From the UHGV virus genome UHGV-1451962: a DNA stretch of 64,000 bases; one strand, given 5' to 3'. Origin of the DNA: a virus. Positions 13,898 to 60,941 of this stretch are shown here, piece by piece. Positions within the stretch are counted from its first letter, which is position 1. Every line of letters begins with the position of its first letter. Made by a program: the position numbers and the translations under genes. A model generated the notes under the pieces. The model was not told the origin of the DNA. It did not search any database and saw only the letters and a program-made list of their open reading frames with translations.

Positions 13898-14471
13898 TCA
13901 TATCTTCCTCCAAAAAAGTAAAAAATCTTTTCCTTTTTCTCATTGGCTCTCTTGTTTTAGGGGGAGTGATATGAATTTCTTCTGTAGGCAGAATAAAATT
14001 TTCTATTTCTTTATTTTCATTTCTTTGCTGATTTTCCCAAATTGTATAATAATAATTTCTAGCATTTTCATACTGATAAGGGACAATTCCAATTCTGCCT
14101 TGAGCCTTTCCTAAATCTCCACCTTTTACTTCAAAATGATATTTTAAAGTTTTTAAAATACCAGAATAAGTATAATGATTTTCATTTACATAGTCTTTAA
14201 TTTGTTTATAAACTACTTTAGGAATTATATCATAATTAAAAAGTTGTTTAATATATTCTTCTAAAGCAATCCGGTTTTTTTCTTCTTCTGCAATATTTTG
14301 ACTATATCTTTCATAACATAACTTATGTGCATATCTTCTTTTATTAGGAATTGGTATACATTCTTCTTTGTCTCGGTCAAATGTACTTCCGCACACAAAA
14401 CATTTTACTTTATGTGCAATTTTTATCACTTCCTTTTTTAATATTATAACATATATTTGAACAAAAGTCAA
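13890..14471 (-). CDS. hypothetical protein with CxxC...C/H zinc-finger-like motif
   Basis: KCFVCGS...HKLCYERY; annotated start overlaps terminator hairpin so true start may be downstream. Confidence 0.4.
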   Translation of the reverse strand: MTFVQIYVIILKKEVIKIAHKVKCFVCGSTFDRDKEECIPIPNKRRYAHKLCYERYSQNIAEEEKNRIALEEYIKQLFNYDIIPKVVYKQIKDYVNENHYTYSGILKTLKYHFEVKGGDLGKAQGRIGIVPYQYENARNYYYTIWENQQRNENKEIENFILPTEEIHITPPKTREPMRKRKRFFTFLEEDMNE

Positions 14472-14495
14472 GAGGATTATCCTCTTGACTTTTGT
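14464..14495 (-). terminator. Rho-independent terminator hairpin
   Basis: Perfect inverted repeat GTCAAGAGGAT/ATCCTCTTGAC flanked by A/T runs. Confidence 0.5.
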
Positions 14496-14509
14496 TATTA
14501 TTGCTATAA

Positions 14510-21462: not shown

Positions 21463-23343
21463 TTAATCAAAAGTAAAACCAAGCTCGGTAGCATTTTCAT
21501 AAATATATTGTTTGCGGGGTTCTACTTTAACTCCCATTAAAATTTCAAGTAATTCATCTGCTTTTTCTGCATCACTAATAGTAATTCTTTTATAGCGTTC
21601 TTGCTCAAAACAAACTTTCTGAAGATCACGTGCGTTTAACTCGCCCAAACCTTTCGCTCTCACTAGCTCATAAGTGCCTTGATGCTGAGTTTTCCACTCT
21701 TCAAGTTCTTCATCAGTATAAGCATAGTATTCATTATTCTTCTGACGAATAATGTACAAAGGAGTAACTGCTCTATAAAGTTTTCCTGCTTCGACTAAAG
21801 GCCGCATATAAGTAAAAAAGAATGTAGTTAAAAGTAATTCAATACTAGCTCCATCAGAATCTGCATCCGAAGTAATTACGATTTTATCAAATTGCATTTT
21901 ATCTACATCAAAAGTTTTATCAAAACCTCCACCAATTACTTTAATAATATCAGAAATTTCTTGATTAGCAAGAATTTTTTCAACAGATTGTTTTCTAGGG
22001 CTAATAGTTTTACCTTTTAACATATAAATACAATCTGTTTTGGGATTCCGTGCTTCAACGGCAGATGATCCTGCGCTTAAACCCTCGACTAGCAGTAGAT
22101 TACGCTGGCTTGGATTCTTATTTGTGCAATCAATAAATTTATTACTTAGGGCGATTTTGGCTTTAAGACCAGTTTCTTTTTTACCCTTATCCCTAACAGC
22201 TTCTCTAGCTTTTCGAGCTGCTTCTCTAGCTTTTCGAGCATTGATCGCCTTATCTGCGATTTTCTTTATTTCTTTTTCATTTGCTTCAAACCAATATTGT
22301 AATTCTTGTGCAATGATTCCTGCAAAAGGGTGCATATCAATTTTAACAATTCTACTTTTGGTCTGAGCGTCATAAGCTATACCAGGAGCAGTAATATTAA
22401 AAACTAAATATAATCCTTCTTGACAATCATCGCCAGATAAATTGCTATCCTTTTCTTTCAACCAAGCTTTATCTCTAAAAAACTTATTCATTTCTCTTGT
22501 TAGAATAGTTTTAATTTGAGTAATATGCGGGCCAGTATCAGTAAGTCCTGTATTAACATAAGGAACAATAGTAGAAGAATATTTATCAGTATAAGTTAAT
22601 ACTAAATTTAATTCATTCTTATTATCTTTAAAATCAATTTTAAGTCTATTTTTAATAATTTCGCTATTTTTATCTACAGTAGAATCAACCAAATCAGTTA
22701 ATCCATTCTTAGAGAAAAAAGTTTTTTCATTTAAAGTGATAGTTAAACCTGGACATAAACAAACTAAAACTTCAAAAAGATTATTAATAATTTTTAAATC
22801 TACTTCTGGGTGAGTAAAAAATTCTTCACTTGCTTGCCAAGTAACAACAGTACCGGATTCTTTATCATTTTTTACTTTACCAGTTTTGCGGTTTTTGAAA
22901 ATTCCTTCTTCAAAAGAAACTTCTTCAAAATTTCCTTTTTGATAACTAAGTACCTTTGTCCAATGACTTAAAAATACAACTAGCTTACTGCCGATTCCGT
23001 TTAGACCTAACGCGGTACCTTCATAAACACCATCTTCAGTATATTTACCAGAAGTGTTAAGCACACTAAAAGCAGCTTCAAGAATTGTTTTTCCGTCTTC
23101 TCTAGTGGAATTAATTAAAAAACCTTGCCCATTATCTTTAACTGTGATTACATTATTATCTGAAATAGTTACATTAATTTCAGTGCAATGACCTGCTTTA
23201 AACTCGTCAACTGCATTAGAAACAATCTCAATCAATAGCTGAGTTGAATATTCAGTAGAACCAACATATACTCCAGGTCTAAGTCTTGTAAATTCTAGTG
23301 GAGTAAGACTTTGAATTGAATCTTTATTATATAAATTATTCAC
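21463..23343 (-). CDS. Type II topoisomerase subunit B (GyrB/ParE-like)
   Basis: GHKL ATPase N-terminus, TOPRIM EGLSAGSSA, MLKGKTISP; contains internal AREAARK repeat. Confidence 0.85.
   Translation of the reverse strand: MNNLYNKDSIQSLTPLEFTRLRPGVYVGSTEYSTQLLIEIVSNAVDEFKAGHCTEINVTISDNNVITVKDNGQGFLINSTREDGKTILEAAFSVLNTSGKYTEDGVYEGTALGLNGIGSKLVVFLSHWTKVLSYQKGNFEEVSFEEGIFKNRKTGKVKNDKESGTVVTWQASEEFFTHPEVDLKIINNLFEVLVCLCPGLTITLNEKTFFSKNGLTDLVDSTVDKNSEIIKNRLKIDFKDNKNELNLVLTYTDKYSSTIVPYVNTGLTDTGPHITQIKTILTREMNKFFRDKAWLKEKDSNLSGDDCQEGLYLVFNITAPGIAYDAQTKSRIVKIDMHPFAGIIAQELQYWFEANEKEIKKIADKAINARKAREAARKAREAVRDKGKKETGLKAKIALSNKFIDCTNKNPSQRNLLLVEGLSAGSSAVEARNPKTDCIYMLKGKTISPRKQSVEKILANQEISDIIKVIGGGFDKTFDVDKMQFDKIVITSDADSDGASIELLLTTFFFTYMRPLVEAGKLYRAVTPLYIIRQKNNEYYAYTDEELEEWKTQHQGTYELVRAKGLGELNARDLQKVCFEQERYKRITISDAEKADELLEILMGVKVEPRKQYIYENATELGFTFD
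22199..22240. repeat. 21-bp perfect tandem duplication inside topoisomerase B gene
   Basis: gcttctctagcttttcgagct repeated twice, encoding ARKAREAARKAREA. Confidence 0.7.
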
Positions 23344-23827
23344 CCAATACCTCCTTAACAGTCACTCTACCAGTAGCTAAATCATCAGCAAGTTCATTGC
23401 CTTCAATACCAGCATGACCTTTAATTTTTCTTAAATCAATCTTTCTATGCCATTTATTATATATTATATCATAAAATTTTATTAAATCCAAATTTTCAGG
23501 AGTTGATTTATCTGCTTTTCGCCAGTTATTATTTTTCCACCTGTACATCCAATCATTGAAAGTATTTACACAATATAAAGAATCTGTATAAACAATAGGA
23601 TAAGTAAAAGAATCTGCCGAAACCCCATAATTGTACAAAGCCCAAAGAATAGCTTTCATTTCTTCTCTATTGTTTGTAGTTCCAATAGTTTGACAAGCAA
23701 AAGCATCTACTAAATGTAGGTTTTTAGGGTCTTTAACATACTTATAAACAACTACCCCATAACCACCAGAAGCATCTTTACTACCATTCTTCAAAGTTGA
23801 GCCATCAGTATAAATAACAGTACCTAT
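23336..23827 (-). CDS. rnhA: Ribonuclease H (RNase HI-like), probable non-AUG start
   Basis: C-terminal GHAGIEGNELAD motif; catalytic-Asp motif VIYTDGS is encoded upstream of the TTG used by the ORF track, bounded by TAA at 23831-23833. Confidence 0.7.
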   Translation of the reverse strand: MGTVIYTDGSTLKNGSKDASGGYGVVVYKYVKDPKNLHLVDAFACQTIGTTNNREEMKAILWALYNYGVSADSFTYPIVYTDSLYCVNTFNDWMYRWKNNNWRKADKSTPENLDLIKFYDIIYNKWHRKIDLRKIKGHAGIEGNELADDLATGRVTVKEVLGE

Positions 23828-23947
23828 GATTTAACTCTCCTTTCTTTGATTTTCTTAAATAAAAGTAGTATAATATTAATAATAAATCAATCAATCTTTT
23901 ATTCTTTAATAATATTATATCATTTTTTTAAAATAAAAACAAATAAA

Positions 23948-23982
23948 GGGTTATAAACTCACCAAAGGTGAGTTTATAACCC
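23948..23982 (-). terminator. Rho-independent terminator hairpin
   Basis: GGGTTATAAACTCACC/GGTGAGTTTATAACCC inverted repeat after holin gene; same core reused at 53738. Confidence 0.5.
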
Positions 23983-25182: not shown

Positions 25183-25611
25183 TTAAATTAATTCTGCGAG
25201 TTCTGCTATTTTAGATCTATGGATATTATTTAAAGTTACTTCTCCATAAATATCAGAACCTCTAAAAATTTTAGACATTCTTCTCATGCCATTGTTATTA
25301 CCAGAATAAGCTAATGAGTCAACTTGCGTTTTAGCATCACCATCAATAATACAAATACAATCTTCACCAATACGTTGAAGAGCTAATTTAATTAAAGTTC
25401 TGTCTAAATTTTGTGCTTCTGTTATATAAATACCTGCGTTCATTCCGCTAGTATCATAACCTCTAATATCGCTAAAAGGCAATAAAACTAATTTATCTTC
25501 TTCCATCATACGAAGAACACCTTCTTTACCGCCCAATTTGGCGGAAAGCATATTACCAATTTGTGAGTCAAGTAATTTATCGTCTTTTGTACCTGGGTAA
25601 ACATTAAACAT
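25183..25611 (-). CDS. phoH: PhoH-like ATPase, downstream exon (Walker B half)
   Basis: Contains PhoH motifs IYITEAQNL and IIDGDAKTQVD; lacks Walker A, which lies in ORF 26878..27747. Confidence 0.65.
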   Translation of the reverse strand: MFNVYPGTKDDKLLDSQIGNMLSAKLGGKEGVLRMMEEDKLVLLPFSDIRGYDTSGMNAGIYITEAQNLDRTLIKLALQRIGEDCICIIDGDAKTQVDSLAYSGNNNGMRRMSKIFRGSDIYGEVTLNNIHRSKIAELAELI

Positions 25612-26877
25612 TATAGCTTTCGCTATAAACCTGACTATATCTTATTTCAAACTATTTTTTAAACTAATATATTTATCATATTTTCTTTTTAAAAATCTTG
25701 GATTATTATCATAAAGAGTATTTAAAATATTTAATACTTGTATTCTACCTCTCCATTGTGTATGCCACGCGGTAGTATAAAAATTTTTGTTTTTTTTATC
25801 TGATTGTATTAGAAGGTTTATTATATTTTGAAAATCTTCAACTTCTGTCTCACAATAAGCTGTATAACTTAATGTTACATCTGTGCTAAAATTTTTACTA
25901 TATGAAAGACCGCCATCACCATCAAATAAACCTAAAGCATAAGCTGATAAATATTCTTTAGGGATTTTTTCATAAGGAATATGTGTTATTTTATAAGTTT
26001 TATTTGGCACTATATTATATTTTGCTAAGTCATTATAAATTTGTTCATCTACAAATTCAACTGAACAACAAGTGCTATTTGGACGAATATCATAGATAAT
26101 TTTACTATCTATTTGAATATCATTTTTAAATTTTTCAAGAAGTTCTATATCTTGTTCTTGAATTTGTAATCTAATTCGCCCAGTTTTTCGATAATGGTCT
26201 ACACTTCCATCTGTAAATAAAAATCCTAGCCAATATGCTTTAATAGGAGAGTCGATAATTGAAAAATAATCACTTTTAATTCTCCTATTAATTTTATTTG
26301 TATTTGTAACTTTGATATTTAATTCTTTTAACCTTTTCTTCGTTGTTTCAACATCCAAATTACAATATTTAGCAATTTCTTTAAGAAAAGCTCCTTCTTT
26401 AATCATTTTTTTAATAGTAATAATTTGTTCATCAGATAAATTTTTCTTTTTTCTTCCACCTCTTATTACAACATTATTATCTGTAAGAAGTTTTGTTAAA
26501 TTACGTCTATTATAAGAAGGATATTTTAAAAGTAATTTAGTTATTGACTGACCTTCTAAATACTCTTGTACAATTTGTTTTTCCATAAACTATCTCCTTT
26601 ATTTTAATATTATATATTATTTTTATTAAAGATAGTTTTTCTTTGTTTGTCCAAAATTTTTCAGTTTGAAATCCATGCGCTTCGGAATTTTACTTCCTAC
26701 TCTACTCCCTTACTATAGTTTCGATAGTCGATGAGCCTTCCTCTATTCGAGGCTTGGTTGCTGATTGTCCAATCTATATTATTTTTAAACGTTCACGCTT
26801 AGATTTATTTCATTCTTACGTTGTAGTTAATATAGCTCTAAGGATGTTCCAGCAGTTCACATGGTTTTACTTGAGCC
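25612..26877 (-). mobile_element. Putative group I intron interrupting phoH, carrying a LAGLIDADG homing endonuclease ORF
   Basis: GC-richer, stem-rich ~290-nt segment (26590-26880) plus free-standing endonuclease ORF between the two phoH halves; boundaries approximate. Confidence 0.5.
25642..26586 (-). CDS. LAGLIDADG homing endonuclease (double-motif)
   Basis: Two LAGLIDADG motifs: YWLGFLFTDGSV and AYALGLFDGDGGL; own RBS AAAGGAGATAG. Confidence 0.8.
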   Translation of the reverse strand: MEKQIVQEYLEGQSITKLLLKYPSYNRRNLTKLLTDNNVVIRGGRKKKNLSDEQIITIKKMIKEGAFLKEIAKYCNLDVETTKKRLKELNIKVTNTNKINRRIKSDYFSIIDSPIKAYWLGFLFTDGSVDHYRKTGRIRLQIQEQDIELLEKFKNDIQIDSKIIYDIRPNSTCCSVEFVDEQIYNDLAKYNIVPNKTYKITHIPYEKIPKEYLSAYALGLFDGDGGLSYSKNFSTDVTLSYTAYCETEVEDFQNIINLLIQSDKKNKNFYTTAWHTQWRGRIQVLNILNTLYDNNPRFLKRKYDKYISLKNSLK

Positions 26878-27747
26878 TTACCCTATTTTAATTAACCCAA
26901 GTCTTGCGGAATTAATAGTTGCCACTGTATTACAAAAGATTATAATTTTATCTATTCTATTTTTTTCTAACATATACATTAAAAAAGCTAGAGAAATGTA
27001 AGATTTTCCTACTCCTGCTGGGCCTTGTAACAAAGTAATTTTATTATTAGCTAAACTATCAAAAGCACATTTTTGATATATGTCTCCTTGATATGGTTGT
27101 ACTTTTCCAAACCAGGTAGAATCAAAAGTAGGAAATTTTAAGTAACGATAAGTTTCTCCTGACCAAACCCGCACATCTATAAGTTCATCAAAATTATCAG
27201 GATTTTTTAAAAGTAGATATTCTCCTTTTTTAAGATTAAAATGATTATAGTTAGGATTTTCATAAAATTTAGAAATTAATTCTTCACTAGCAGTAATTTC
27301 TGCAATTCCACTATAAGTATCTAAATCTTCCTCAATAGAAGAAACATTTTCTTTGGGAAACAAACATAAAGCAATATGTTTTAAACTTAAATCATTAGTT
27401 ATAAATTCTAAACATTTATTTGTTTCAAACTCATTCCAAGCATCAGACAAAATTCTAGCATCATCATTAATATCAAAATTCATTTTATCTAAAATGTATT
27501 CATAATTTATTTGATGAATTTTAACAGAATAATTATTTGGATATTTTTCAAATAAATGAAGCAAAAGTCTTGCGGAATATTTTATATCAGAATCTTTATT
27601 TGCCGCAGTTTTAATTCTTTCTAATTCTTTTAAAGTAATAGAAGAAATGATAAATTTCTCATCATCTTCAAAAGCTGATTCTCCGGCTAATAAAAGACTA
27701 CAAGTATCGTAGAATTTAATAATAATTTCCACTCTCCTATTGTTCAA
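26878..27747 (-). CDS. phoH: PhoH-like ATPase, upstream exon (PIN-like N-domain plus Walker A)
   Basis: Walker A LLQGPAGVGKSY near C-terminus; last residues probably intron-encoded read-through. Confidence 0.65.
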   Translation of the reverse strand: MNNRRVEIIIKFYDTCSLLLAGESAFEDDEKFIISSITLKELERIKTAANKDSDIKYSARLLLHLFEKYPNNYSVKIHQINYEYILDKMNFDINDDARILSDAWNEFETNKCLEFITNDLSLKHIALCLFPKENVSSIEEDLDTYSGIAEITASEELISKFYENPNYNHFNLKKGEYLLLKNPDNFDELIDVRVWSGETYRYLKFPTFDSTWFGKVQPYQGDIYQKCAFDSLANNKITLLQGPAGVGKSYISLAFLMYMLEKNRIDKIIIFCNTVATINSARLGLIKIG

Positions 27748-48465: not shown

Positions 48466-48541
48466 TGGCAGCGGCAGTTGGATTTGAACCAACGGATATA
48501 CGGGTCAAAGCCGTACGTCTTAACCACTTGACTATGCCGCT
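48466..48541 (-). tRNA. tRNA-Gln (anticodon TTG)
   Basis: Acceptor AGCGGCA/TGCCGCT, anticodon arm TACGG-CTTTGAC-CCGTA, T-arm GTTGGTTCAAATCCAAC, CCA. Confidence 0.75.
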
Positions 48542-48559
48542 ATATCAAGATGCTATTAA

Positions 48560-48680
48560 TAAACCTTATAGAAATATATTTACTATATAGTATTTTAATA
48601 AACTTTATAGAAATATATTTACTATAATATACTATTTTTATAAACCCTATAAAAATATATTTGTAATAATTATTGCTGGA
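48560..48680. repeat. Three ~38-bp imperfect direct repeats (iteron-like)
   Basis: aaccttatagaaatatatttactata... repeated three times. Confidence 0.5.
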
Positions 48681-48886
48681 AGCATCTTATAAAGAAGAAA
48701 GAAAGGATAAAATAAGAAAAAACTAGACACAAAAAATTTCTTGTAAGTCTCATTATATTAAAGAAATTTTCACAAAAGATAATATAAATCATTGACATAC
48801 TTTTTCATTAAATGGAGCTGTTAATAGGGCCACAGCAAGCCGCAAATTATAATATCAGTATTATAAAATTGCTGTATGTGTCTAAA

Positions 48887-48962
48887 TGGTAGAAAATGTC
48901 AGATTTGAACTGCGACTCTAGCTCCCAAAGCTAGCGTGTTACCAGATTACACTACATTCTCT
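48887..48962 (-). tRNA. tRNA-Pro (anticodon TGG), irregular T-stem
   Basis: Acceptor AGAGAAT/ATTTTCT, anticodon arm CTAGC-TTTGGGA-GCTAG, T-loop TTCAAAT, CCA. Confidence 0.6.
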
Positions 48963-49056
48963 TGGCGGAAACGGTGGGTGCCGACCCCACTCGCCTATTT
49001 TCATAGACCTAACGGTTTAGCAAACCGTCCTCTTTGCCAACATTGAGTACATTTCC
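48963..49056 (-). tRNA. tRNA-Ser (anticodon GCT), class II, non-canonical T-loop
   Basis: Acceptor GGAAATG/CGTTTCC, anticodon arm ACGGT-TTGCTAA-ACCGT, variable-arm hairpin with GAAA loop, T-arm GTGGG-GTCGGCA-CCCAC, CCA. Confidence 0.55.
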
Positions 49057-49175
49057 ATATAAATTAGAAATAATTATCTATCACTAATAGTAATTACTTC
49101 ATCAGAAAAAATCATATCATCCAAATCCATAAGGCAGCTCTCCTTTCTATATTTAATTTTTGCTAGACTCTTTTA

Positions 49176-49250
49176 AACCAGAAATGGGAATCGAACCCAT
49201 ATTTTTACCTTTTCAAGGGTAATGTCTTAACCTTTTGACTATTTCAGAAT
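49176..49250 (-). tRNA. Atypical tRNA-like element (possible pseudo-tRNA or expanded-anticodon-loop tRNA)
   Basis: Canonical T-arm ATGGGTTCGATTCCCAT but apparent 8-nt anticodon loop CTTGAAAA on TTACC/GGTAA stem, poorly paired acceptor, no CCA. Confidence 0.35.
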
Positions 49251-49278
49251 TAAAGAATTTTTGCTGTATGAGTCTATA

Positions 49279-49352
49279 TGGATGCAGACTTTGGAATCGA
49301 ACCAAAATAACTTAGCTTATGAGACTAAGCGGAGAACCAACTCTGCCTGCAA
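49279..49352 (-). tRNA. tRNA-Met/Ile (anticodon CAT), short D-arm
   Basis: Acceptor TGCAGGC/GTCTGCA, anticodon arm TTAGT-CTCATAA-GCTAA, T-arm TTTGGTTCGATTCCAAA, CCA. Confidence 0.6.
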
Positions 49353-49430
49353 TATATAAACAAGACACTTGTATTAAAATTTTATGCCATTTTTTATTAT
49401 AAAATAAATTGCTGTATGTGTCTTTTGTTA

Positions 49431-49506
49431 TGGTACTCCTAGCGGGCTACGATCCCGCGACTCTAGCTTGAAGGGCTAGCGACTTAGCCTACTTGTCGAT
49501 AGGAGC
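49431..49506 (-). tRNA. tRNA-Glu (anticodon TTC), variant T-loop
   Basis: Acceptor GCTCCTA/TAGGAGT, anticodon arm CTAGC-CCTTCAA-GCTAG, T-arm GCGGG-ATCGTAG-CCCGC, CCA. Confidence 0.6.
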
Positions 49507-49517
49507 TAATTAATATA

Positions 49518-49594
49518 TGGCGGATCCAGTTCGACTTGAACGAACAACCCACGGATTAACAGTCCGTTGCGCTAACCAATTACGCTATGGATCC
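49518..49594 (-). tRNA. tRNA-Asn (anticodon GTT)
   Basis: Acceptor GGATCCA/TGGATCC, anticodon arm ACGGA-CTGTTAA-TCCGT, T-arm GTTCGTTCAAGTCGAAC, CCA. Confidence 0.75.
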
Positions 49595-49789
49595 AAATTT
49601 CTTTTTTCTTTTAAAGGAACCTTTACCCTTTTTAGGTTTTACTTTACTACCTCTGCGGCGAAACTGCAAATACTCTTGAAGTTCATCGCCATTCTTTTTC
49701 GCCCATAAATTCTTGTTCTTCTGTTTCTTCATAATCATTCTCCTGATTGGTAACACTACCAACTTCATCAGATTGAATCTCGCAATCAA
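49580..49789 (-). CDS. hypothetical small Lys/Arg-rich protein (first gene of tRNA array 2 transcript)
   Basis: 69-aa ORF, about one-third K/R, preceded by consensus promoter; 3' end overlaps tRNA-Asn by ~15 nt. Confidence 0.35.
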   Translation of the reverse strand: MIARFNLMKLVVLPIRRMIMKKQKNKNLWAKKNGDELQEYLQFRRRGSKVKPKKGKGSFKRKKKFGSIA

Positions 49790-49834
49790 AGGAATCCCAG
49801 TAAAACATTAAATCAACCTCAACTTTCTATAAAT

Positions 49835-49863
49835 ATTATATCATAAAATTTTTAATTTTTCAA
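49835..49863 (-). promoter_or_regulatory. Sigma-70-type promoter (TTGAAA-N17-TGnTATAAT)
   Basis: Reverse complement TTGAAA, 17 nt, TGATATAAT. Confidence 0.55.
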
Positions 49864-49927
49864 ATTGAGATTTACTAGACAGTTTTAAACAAAATAAATA
49901 CCTTACCAATAGGCTACTTTACAGACT

Positions 49928-49961
49928 TGTAAAGACAGGAATCGAACCTGCATGTCATTAC
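49928..49961 (-). ncRNA. tRNA minihelix-like element (acceptor stem plus T-arm only)
   Basis: Minus strand GTAATGA-CATG-CAGGTTCGATTCCTG-TCTTTAC: canonical T-arm between 7-nt complementary arms, no D or anticodon arm. Confidence 0.3.
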
Positions 49962-49989
49962 TTATATAAATATTGCTGTGTCTGTCTAA

Positions 49990-50071
49990 TGGTGTTGGAT
50001 AAGAGACTCGAACTCTTACGCTTGTGCGGTAGCTTCTAAGGCTACTATGTCTACCATTCCATCAATCCAAC
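49990..50071 (-). tRNA. tRNA-Leu (anticodon TAG), class II
   Basis: Acceptor GTTGGAT/ATCCAAC, anticodon arm GTAGC-CTTAGAA-GCTAC, long variable arm, T-arm GAGTTCGAGTCTC, CCA. Confidence 0.7.
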
Positions 50072-50140
50072 ATTTCTTTGGTTAATCTTATATAAATATT
50101 ATATCATATTTATTAATTAAAGTCAACCAAAAATTTTTAA

Positions 50141-50170
50141 CGGTTTTAATTTCTTTAAGACCGCGAACTT
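50141..50170. repeat. Direct repeat flanking tRNA(TAA), copy 1
   Basis: cggttttaatttctttaagaccgcgaactt, resembling copy at 50281. Confidence 0.4.
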
Positions 50171-50197
50171 AAAATTAAATCGCACAATATTCTGCGC

Positions 50198-50276
50198 TGG
50201 TAGCACTGATGGGACTCGAACCCACACTGAATAGATTTTAAGTCTACTGCCTGCTTCCAATTGGGCTACAGTGCCA
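50198..50276 (-). tRNA. Class I tRNA with anticodon TAA (short variable arm; identity uncertain)
   Basis: Acceptor GGCACTG/CAGTGCT, anticodon arm GTAGA-CTTAAAA-TCTAT, 5-nt variable loop, T-arm GTGGGTTCGAGTCCCAT, CCA. Confidence 0.55.
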
Positions 50277-50280
50277 TATG

Positions 50281-50310
50281 CGGTTTTACAATTTAGACCG
50301 CAAACTAAAA
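50281..50310. repeat. Direct repeat flanking tRNA(TAA), copy 2
   Basis: cggttttacaatttagaccgcaaactaaaa. Confidence 0.4.
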
Positions 50311-50506
50311 GATATAATTTAAAAGTTAATATAAAAGTGAAAAAGTTTTAGTTAATAACATTGATACTCGGTTGCCTAAAAGTAATTCCACGTGATTTTC
50401 TATCACTCTTTCTAAATGTAAATCAAACGTTGATTGTAGCAAAGGGAGGGATTCAAATGACGCAACATTTAAATACATCAAACTTTTATTACATTTAAAT
50501 TATTAA

Positions 50507-50582
50507 TGGTAGTGCTGTTGGGATTTGAACCCACGTCTAGCGATTATAAGTCACTGGCTCTAACCTACTGAGCTACAACACT
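50507..50582 (-). tRNA. tRNA-Ile (anticodon TAT)
   Basis: Acceptor AGTGTTG/CAGCACT, D-arm GCTCAGTAGGTTAGAGC, anticodon arm AGTGA-CTTATAA-TCGCT, T-loop TTCAAAT, CCA. Confidence 0.7.
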
Positions 50583-60587: not shown

Positions 60588-60941
60588 TTATTTATTATTT
60601 TTTAAGAGTTCTAGTTCAAAGACTGAATCTGGAATAGGTGACCAATTTCCCCAAGCAGTTTTTATAGATTTGAAACGAATTAAATTATCATTAATTTCAG
60701 TTAAATTTTCAATTGTTTTATAATTTTCCGCAATAGTAATTCTTGCAGGTTCATAATTATCTGCATAAAAACAATTATATTCTAAAATTTGAAGAAAACC
60801 AATGAACATAAAAATAAAAGCAATTAGAACTCCAGCTACGGAAATATAATAAAAATCTACAATATTTTTGCATGTTAAAACTAATCCAATAATACCAATA
60901 ATTAAACTAATAAGAGCGACAATAAATAAATTACATATTAT
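60588..60941 (-). CDS. Two-TM membrane protein, probable non-AUG (AUA) start
   Basis: First in-frame ATG (60809) lies inside second hydrophobic segment; frame open upstream to TAA at 60948-60950, with AAGGAG RBS before ATA codons. Confidence 0.4.
   Translation of the reverse strand: MICNLFIVALISLIIGIIGLVLTCKNIVDFYYISVAGVLIAFIFMFIGFLQILEYNCFYADNYEPARITIAENYKTIENLTEINDNLIRFKSIKTAWGNWSPIPDSVFELELLKNNK

Follow-up and report, generated by a model that had tools for sequence, protein, structure and literature searches.

An RNase HI gene of an uncultured gut phage that probably initiates translation at a near-cognate AUA or AUC codon

Translation of the ribonuclease HI (RNase HI) gene in a 64,000-nucleotide stretch of the virus genome UHGV-1451962, referred to below as the window, very probably begins at a near-cognate codon, with AUA at position 23827 a likelier start than AUC at 23830. 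On the minus strand the frame reads TAA, ATC, ATA, GGT ACT GTT ATT TAT ACT GAT GGC TCA ACT TTG AAG. The in-frame TAA (23831..23833), seen in both sequence and translation, closes the frame directly upstream of the two candidate starts (23825..23830; ATC 23830-23828, ATA 23827-23825), and the GAT at 23804..23806 encodes, by alignment, the equivalent of D10, the first catalytic Asp of E. coli RNase HI. There is no in-frame ATG, GTG or TTG between the TAA and this Asp codon. The nearest canonical codon, a TTG (23792..23794) picked by the open reading frame (ORF) track, lies 4 codons downstream of the Asp and is not a credible start, as it is TTA in relatives, has a weak Shine-Dalgarno (SD) element and loses D10. 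Initiation at the favoured AUA would give a coding sequence of 163 codons plus TAA (23336..23827, stop codon 23338-23336) and initiation at AUC one of 164 codons. A sequence-only reading of the window had placed the Asp strand upstream of the TTG with no ATG, GTG or TTG ahead of it, which the minus-strand sequence confirms; its account of the frame stands as well, apart from the coordinate 23833, which is the T of the closing TAA, the open frame running from 23830, an offset of 3 nt.

The extended 164-residue product matches the Pfam family RNase_H (PF00075) with E=3.5e-26 and 92.5 bits (cut-off 25.8), product residues 4-153 corresponding to profile positions 4-137 of 141, and it aligns to E. 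coli RNase HI structure chains with E ~1e-15 and ~35% identity. That the N-terminal extension belongs to the enzyme, as the sequence-only reading had it, agrees with these alignments: I6-Y-T-D9 stands opposite I7-F-T-D10 of the E. coli protein and IYTDGS opposite IFTDGS (E. coli residues 7-12), so that the first catalytic Asp is present. Further along, TTNNREE is found opposite TTNNRME (E48), YTDS opposite STDS (D70) and GHAG...NELADDLA opposite GHAG...NERCDELA, with the equivalents of H124 and D134 in place, and from these intact residues the gene is predicted to encode an active-type RNase HI. Because the D10 codon precedes the TTG by four codons, initiation at the TTG would yield a protein without a catalytic carboxylate, and the first β-strand with Asp10 would be translated only if the start were ATA or ATC.

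Relatives, found via protein-cluster and contig look-ups, comprise 13 contigs of ~137 kb from the human-gut metagenomes of different studies and samples, which fall into three sub-lineages at ~92-99% amino acid identity. All 13 read ATC ATA GGT ACT ATT ATT TAY ACT GAT GG, with ATC-ATA invariant, and in all 13 the window's TTG (23794) is TTA. The codon before ATC varies, being TAA, TGA (contigs L011, L012 and L035) or AAA (L007, where the frame opens further upstream, still without a canonical start), a variability that fits a position that is probably untranslated. In L001-L010 no in-frame ATG, GTG or TTG occurs before Met58, which comes after D10 and E48 alike. When the window, L001 and L011 are compared by Nei-Gojobori counts, the ratio of nonsynonymous to synonymous change (pN/pS) is 0.07-0.14 in codons 1-57 and 0-0.18 in codons 1-13, next to 0.03-0.11 for the remainder of the gene and 0.08-0.12 for the whole, and hence the region that automatic gene models discard evolves as coding sequence; codons 1-57 are under purifying selection and are therefore in all likelihood translated. 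Syntenic orthologues at 58-61% identity (L022 and L023, gene order lysin - small ORF - RNase H - gyrB - gyrA) have an ATG at about the same place, with the N-terminus M-I-x-I-Y-T-D-G-S, and among the top 120 homologue clusters it is in this clade only that the called N-terminus does not include the YTDGS strand. RNase HI is encoded by many large phages, as a phage collection search established. A DNA search of the curated phage collection returned no close relative, just a 62-bp match in Staphylococcus phages, and a scan of the IMG/VR viral contigs returned no close relative of either the RNase H gene or the membrane-protein gene described below.

The letters directly 5' of ATC-ATA on the minus strand are AAAGAAAGGAGAGTTAA, and a longer stretch of the leader is CAAAGAAAGGAGAGTTAA. 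Here lies an extended SD, AGAAAGGAG (23837..23845, minus strand), which can form 9 uninterrupted base pairs with the 3' end of a Firmicute-type 16S rRNA. The duplex formed by AGAAAGGAG reaches -13.4 to -13.7 kcal/mol, the 7th strongest among 87 window ORFs, as compared with just -2.4 kcal/mol for the TTG at 23794, and relatives retain the element as AGAAGGGAG or AGAAAGGAG. It sits 9 nt ahead of ATA and 6 nt ahead of ATC; the GGAGAG within this region (23840-23835) ends 7 nt ahead of ATA, just as the sequence-only reading had estimated. The leader folds no better than shuffled sequences (z=0.26) and an Rfam scan of the window found tRNAs only, with no other structured RNA, and on these results the idea that the leader forms a riboswitch or other regulatory structure was rejected. 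Further upstream are a promoter-like TTGATT-16 nt-TATACT (23867..23894, minus strand), a match to consensus only and as such weak evidence, and an intrinsic-terminator-like hairpin with a T-run (23948..23982, minus strand) that ends the upstream gene; its 16-pair stem compares with 0.1 expected in shuffles, and it sets RNase H apart from translation of what lies before it. From the promoter-like site up to the gene, no frame has an SD-preceded ATG, GTG or TTG, and every frame contains stops.

An SD-guided scan of the window for near-cognate starts recovered both cases already known, RNase H and a membrane-protein ORF, and added two more candidates. The membrane-protein ORF 60588..60941, for which the sequence-only reading had proposed the same pattern, opens TAA GGA GAT ATA ATA TGT AAT..., with its first canonical start 44 codons downstream, and the proposal holds: we place the start at ATA (60938-60936, coding sequence 60588..60938, minus strand) behind the SD AAGGAG (60949-60944). 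Where the window has AAGGAGATATA ATA TGT AAT TTA, the relatives L019-L021, at 70-87% amino acid identity, have AAGGAGATATA ATG TGT AAT TTA, with ATG at exactly the codon of ATA 60938, and all eight homologue clusters (P0121-P0128) begin MCNLF. From the ATG at the orthologous codon it follows that in the window strain, as in the 137-kb ZEEV15 contig (L013, L018), the start codon of this gene has changed from ATG to ATA. Use of the next canonical start, Met 60809, is predicted to delete the first hydrophobic membrane helix. The ATG>ATA change also creates an out-of-frame ATG-TAA mini-ORF (60931-60936, minus strand) at optimal SD spacing, AAGGAGATATAATATGTAA, which may compete with the ATA-started frame or feed re-initiation into it. 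The G-to-A change produces this mini-ORF as a side effect, and a frameshift from it (ATATGTAA) was rejected as unnecessary, given that relatives have an in-frame ATG at the neighbouring position.

The two additional candidates, in the genes for PhoH and for a YorH-like (PF26927) zinc-finger protein, have ATT starts that are probable, not firm. At the first exon of PhoH the putative start is ATT 27724..27726 (minus strand), with an SD of -11.1 kcal/mol and ATG in the sister clade: the window and L001-L010 read GGAGAGTGGAA ATT ATT ATT AAA, and L011 and L012 read GGAGAGTGAAA ATG ATT TAT AAA. For the YorH-like protein the putative ATT (14418..14420, minus strand) falls on Met1 of homologues, the window reading ATT GCA CAT AAA GTA AAA TGT (I-AHKVKC) as compared with MAHKVKC, MAHRVKC and MAHPVKC, and this ATT is conserved in eight contigs (L025-L032). 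Both genes have an in-frame GTG 2-3 codons upstream, inside or abutting the SD (GGAGAGTG, GGAAGTGAT); the one of PhoH (27732) begins 1 nt after GGAG and the one of the YorH-like gene (14429) is part of the extended SD. A GTG so placed with respect to the 16S-complementary GGAGGUGAU is expected to be a poor start for either gene. The TTG chosen by the ORF track for the YorH-like gene (14471) lies within a terminator hairpin (AAAAGTCAAGAGG...CCTCTTGACTTTT, 14441-14500, minus strand), after which come a TATAAT box and, in relatives, an in-frame TAA, and from these three features the 193-residue YorH-like model is an artefact.

Seven other flags of the SD-guided scan (ATT 43574, CTG 54971, CTG 32691, ATC 25024, ATA 15730, ATA 40862 and ATT 61518) were rejected, since they are near a good ATG, inside longer genes, or in tRNA or non-coding ORFs. 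This leaves two firm and two probable near-cognate starts among ~90 genes of the window (2-4%). In annotated bacterial genomes ATG, GTG and TTG account for 81.8, 13.8 and 4.35% of starts, ~99.95% together (Hecht et al., bioRxiv 10.1101/063800), and the frequency in the window is far above the ~0.05% that fall outside these three codons. We consider it possible, though on balance doubtful, that the phage lineage or the host translation system tolerates AUH starts at an unusually high rate. Strains appear to toggle between ATG and ATA or ATT at orthologous starts, in the membrane gene, in PhoH and, when set against its distant ATG-starting orthologues, possibly in RNase H.

As to which of the two RNase H codons is used, AUA 23827 seems about twice as probable as AUC 23830, and mixed use was also considered; the preference for ATA comes from SD spacing and from the N-terminal length of homologues. 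Spacing was measured as the number of nucleotides between the AAGGAGG-aligned 7-mer and the start codon in the 30 strong-SD ATG genes of the window, 24 of which fall within 6-9; the value of 8 that applies to ATA is found in 4 of the 30 and the value of 5 that applies to ATC in 1. In 117 homologues the Met precedes the Y of YTDGS by 3 residues (43 cases), 4 (58), 5 (7) or 6 (2), and in the window the distance would be 5 for an ATA start and 6 for an ATC start. Moreover, the other three cases in the window are ATA or ATT, never ATC. Initiation at AUC, by the same mechanism and with a product one residue longer (fMet-Ile-Gly-Thr...), is accordingly the less likely course. In its favour, ATC is the first codon after the stop, a position 6 nt after GGAG is physically workable, and an AUC start has been demonstrated in E. 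coli, with the N-terminal Met confirmed by mass spectrometry (bioRxiv 10.1101/063800).

Explanations that dispense with near-cognate initiation fare much worse. It is improbable that the gene is a decaying pseudogene, or that its only product is a shortened protein without catalytic activity that starts at TTG 23794 or at an ATG further along. Products of this kind are indeed what gene callers yield (152 residues here; 139, 127 and 107 in relatives), but the frame is intact in three sub-lineages, the 57 discarded codons show the low pN/pS given above and all catalytic residues are conserved, while the TTG is missing in all relatives and has no SD of its own, the strong SD being found exactly at the head of the open frame. 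Even smaller is the chance that a canonical start is supplied by recoding or an RNA event, be it frameshifting from a mini-ORF, stop readthrough, splicing of an upstream exon or editing of AUA to AUG. RNA processing is hinted at in this lineage by a 1292-bp LAGLIDADG-containing insertion in PhoH and by GIY-YIG ORFs in the gyrB of relatives; nevertheless, RNase H is preceded by an A+T-rich leader with a promoter-like site and a terminator before it, a group I intron would not fit into the gap of 158 nt, and the position of the upstream stop is occupied by TAA, TGA or AAA without conserved context. With no upstream start, stops in all frames and no structured RNA, frameshifting, readthrough and splicing are without a substrate. 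The sequence-only reading had called for either AUA/AUC initiation or recoding, and of these the former is upheld by the invariant ATC-ATA, the pN/pS values and the SD, and the latter finds no support. It had also raised the question of an indel, and in principle a single G-to-A miscall turns ATG into ATA, but loss of a genuine ATG through a sequencing or assembly error is scarcely credible: identical ATC-ATA in 13 independent assemblies, amid real polymorphisms, excludes sequencing error. As for the two outcomes that would have gone against the sequence-only reading, none of the relatives has an ATG further up, and the strand with DGS is present together with all catalytic residues.

Several points weigh against near-cognate initiation at AUA as we have described it. 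ATC and ATA are both invariant, which provides no rigorous separation of AUA from AUC, and the ATG of the membrane-gene relatives works at a spacing of 4, even nearer to its SD than ATC is in RNase H, showing that short spacing is workable. The promoter-like site varies in spacing, its spacer differing by 4 nt in relatives. Near-cognates are weak in E. coli, where AUA, AUC and AUU fall together at about 1-2% of the AUG level (bioRxiv 10.1101/063800), and RNase H output could thus be very low. Finally, both initiation at the RNase H site and the choice of codon are inferred, as is translational attenuation as the purpose.

We propose that AUA would be read by the ordinary initiator fMet-tRNA, which the long and unusually strong SD AGAAAGGAG, on a short unstructured leader, would position and hold on the codon, the outcome being low, IF3-sensitive synthesis of RNase H. 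Sensitivity of the start to initiation factor IF3, and any temporal effect during infection, are speculation. The last 8 nt of the RNase H gene (23336-23343) are shared with gyrB, whose GTG start is at 23343, and the gyrB SD, AAGGAGG, sits within the RNase H 3' end, an arrangement that suggests that rnh-gyrB-gyrA is one transcription unit with translation tuned independently. RNase H would then be the first cistron of this unit, with low output, and gyrB (AAGGAGG and GTG) and gyrA would be translated independently from their own strong SDs and canonical starts. Conservation of a near-cognate start suggests selection for a low dosage of RNase H relative to the co-transcribed gyrase.

The window has a G+C content of ~30% and carries almost all of its genes on the same strand. 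Its genes code for NrdD, a PolIII-alpha-type polymerase, RecJ, DnaB, gyrase and a replication module of the SPbeta YorF/YorH kind, and the strength of its AAGGAG-type SDs points to a low-GC Gram-positive host. PhoH is interrupted by a precise 1292-bp insertion (25602-26893, minus strand) with a free-standing 314-residue LAGLIDADG-type ORF (25642-26586) that has its own SD. L008 and L009 share the insertion, and L001-L007 have an uninterrupted PhoH of 418 residues. It resembles a mobile intron that carries a homing endonuclease, but none of the group I and group II models of Rfam gives a match even at E<=0.1. In some relatives gyrB is split into fragments of 427 or 565 residues by inserted GIY-YIG ORFs (L011 3413-5575, L012, L008/L009), and in the window it is intact at 626 residues. 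The lineage is rich in homing-endonuclease insertions that differ between strains.

Two tRNA arrays (39930-41241 and 48466-50582, minus strand) hold 17 genes in total, including a tRNA-Ile(UAU) and a tRNA(CAU) of low score, which has a reduced D-arm and is missing from the Rfam hits. A tRNA-Ile(UAU), uncommon in bacteria, reads AUA directly. We looked by eye for initiator identity, namely three G:C anticodon-stem pairs and an unpaired 1:72, in these two tRNAs: tRNA-Ile(UAU) (50582-50507) has the anticodon stem AGUGA/UCGCU and an A1-U72 pair, and tRNA(CAU) (49351-49279) has UUAGU/GCUAA and a U1-A72 pair. Neither has initiator identity, and a phage-encoded initiator tRNA reading AUA was therefore rejected within the 64-kb window, out of a genome of roughly 137 kb. 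One further tRNA found by ARAGORN (49175-49250, minus strand; 48 bits with the Rfam tRNA model) has an 8-nt anticodon loop, CUUGAAAA, reported as 'anticodon tgaa' with no amino acid assigned, and could be a tRNA-Phe or tRNA-Ser variant or a four-base-decoding, frameshift-suppressor-like tRNA.

Mis-annotation of public records can be demonstrated. In the large protein collection there are three near-identical RNase H clusters, gene-called at 139, 127 and 107 residues, and the public RNase H records of these lengths, among them the nr entry 'MAG TPA: ribonuclease HI [Caudoviricetes sp.]', are fragments without one or two catalytic residues, since common gene callers allow only ATG, GTG and TTG. 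The membrane protein is called at 73 residues instead of 116, and the called starts of PhoH and the YorH-like gene are probably misplaced by 2-3 codons. If the lineage or its host does tolerate AUH starts at an unusually high rate, standard gene callers would as a rule cut short or misplace genes of this kind across gut-phage catalogues, and start codons mutated at the third position behind an extended SD would serve as a heritable dimmer of expression in replication-module and accessory genes. The recurrence within one window is the noteworthy part, and the ATG/ATH polymorphisms at orthologous starts offer a natural series on the rescue of weak starts by the SD in gut Firmicute-type systems.

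Near-cognate initiation is a known, rare mechanism, which the phage RNase HI case joins. What is added here is the deep conservation of the codon in a phage RNase HI, the further cases in the same genome with ATG/ATH polymorphism at orthologous starts, and the mis-annotation in public records. A search of the literature for documented ATA or ATC starts in phages found nothing specific. In E. coli, infC and pcnB start at AUU, and IF3 discriminates against near-cognates, as established for infC. As in those genes, it would be the initiator tRNA that reads a third-position near-cognate in phage RNase H; unlike infC, no autoregulatory logic is evident for RNase H, and several genes of one 64-kb phage segment are involved. 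As a protein, the phage enzyme aligns with E. coli RNase HI (rnhA; structures such as 2RN2 and 1RNH) at the DEDD carboxylates, His124 and the basic-protrusion region, differing from it by short insertions that follow β2 or lie close to the αB region, and its clade is set apart by having no ATG start, unlike 117 of 120 close database homologues. The nearest parallel in initiation is provided by S. aureus, where infC, ccpN and citZ start at AUA and cvfC1 at AUU, all with extended SDs (PMC13009471; bioRxiv 10.1101/2025.06.19.660503), and where AUA and AUU starts reach about 10-30% of AUG in reporters (PMC13009471). Shared with those starts are the AUH codon, the low-GC context, the long SD pairing beyond the GGAGG core, the conservation of the codon and, presumably, attenuated translation as the outcome, the difference being that the S. 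aureus examples are cellular genes validated by Ribo-RET and luciferase assays, whereas the RNase HI start described here belongs to an uncultured gut phage and is read from its sequence.

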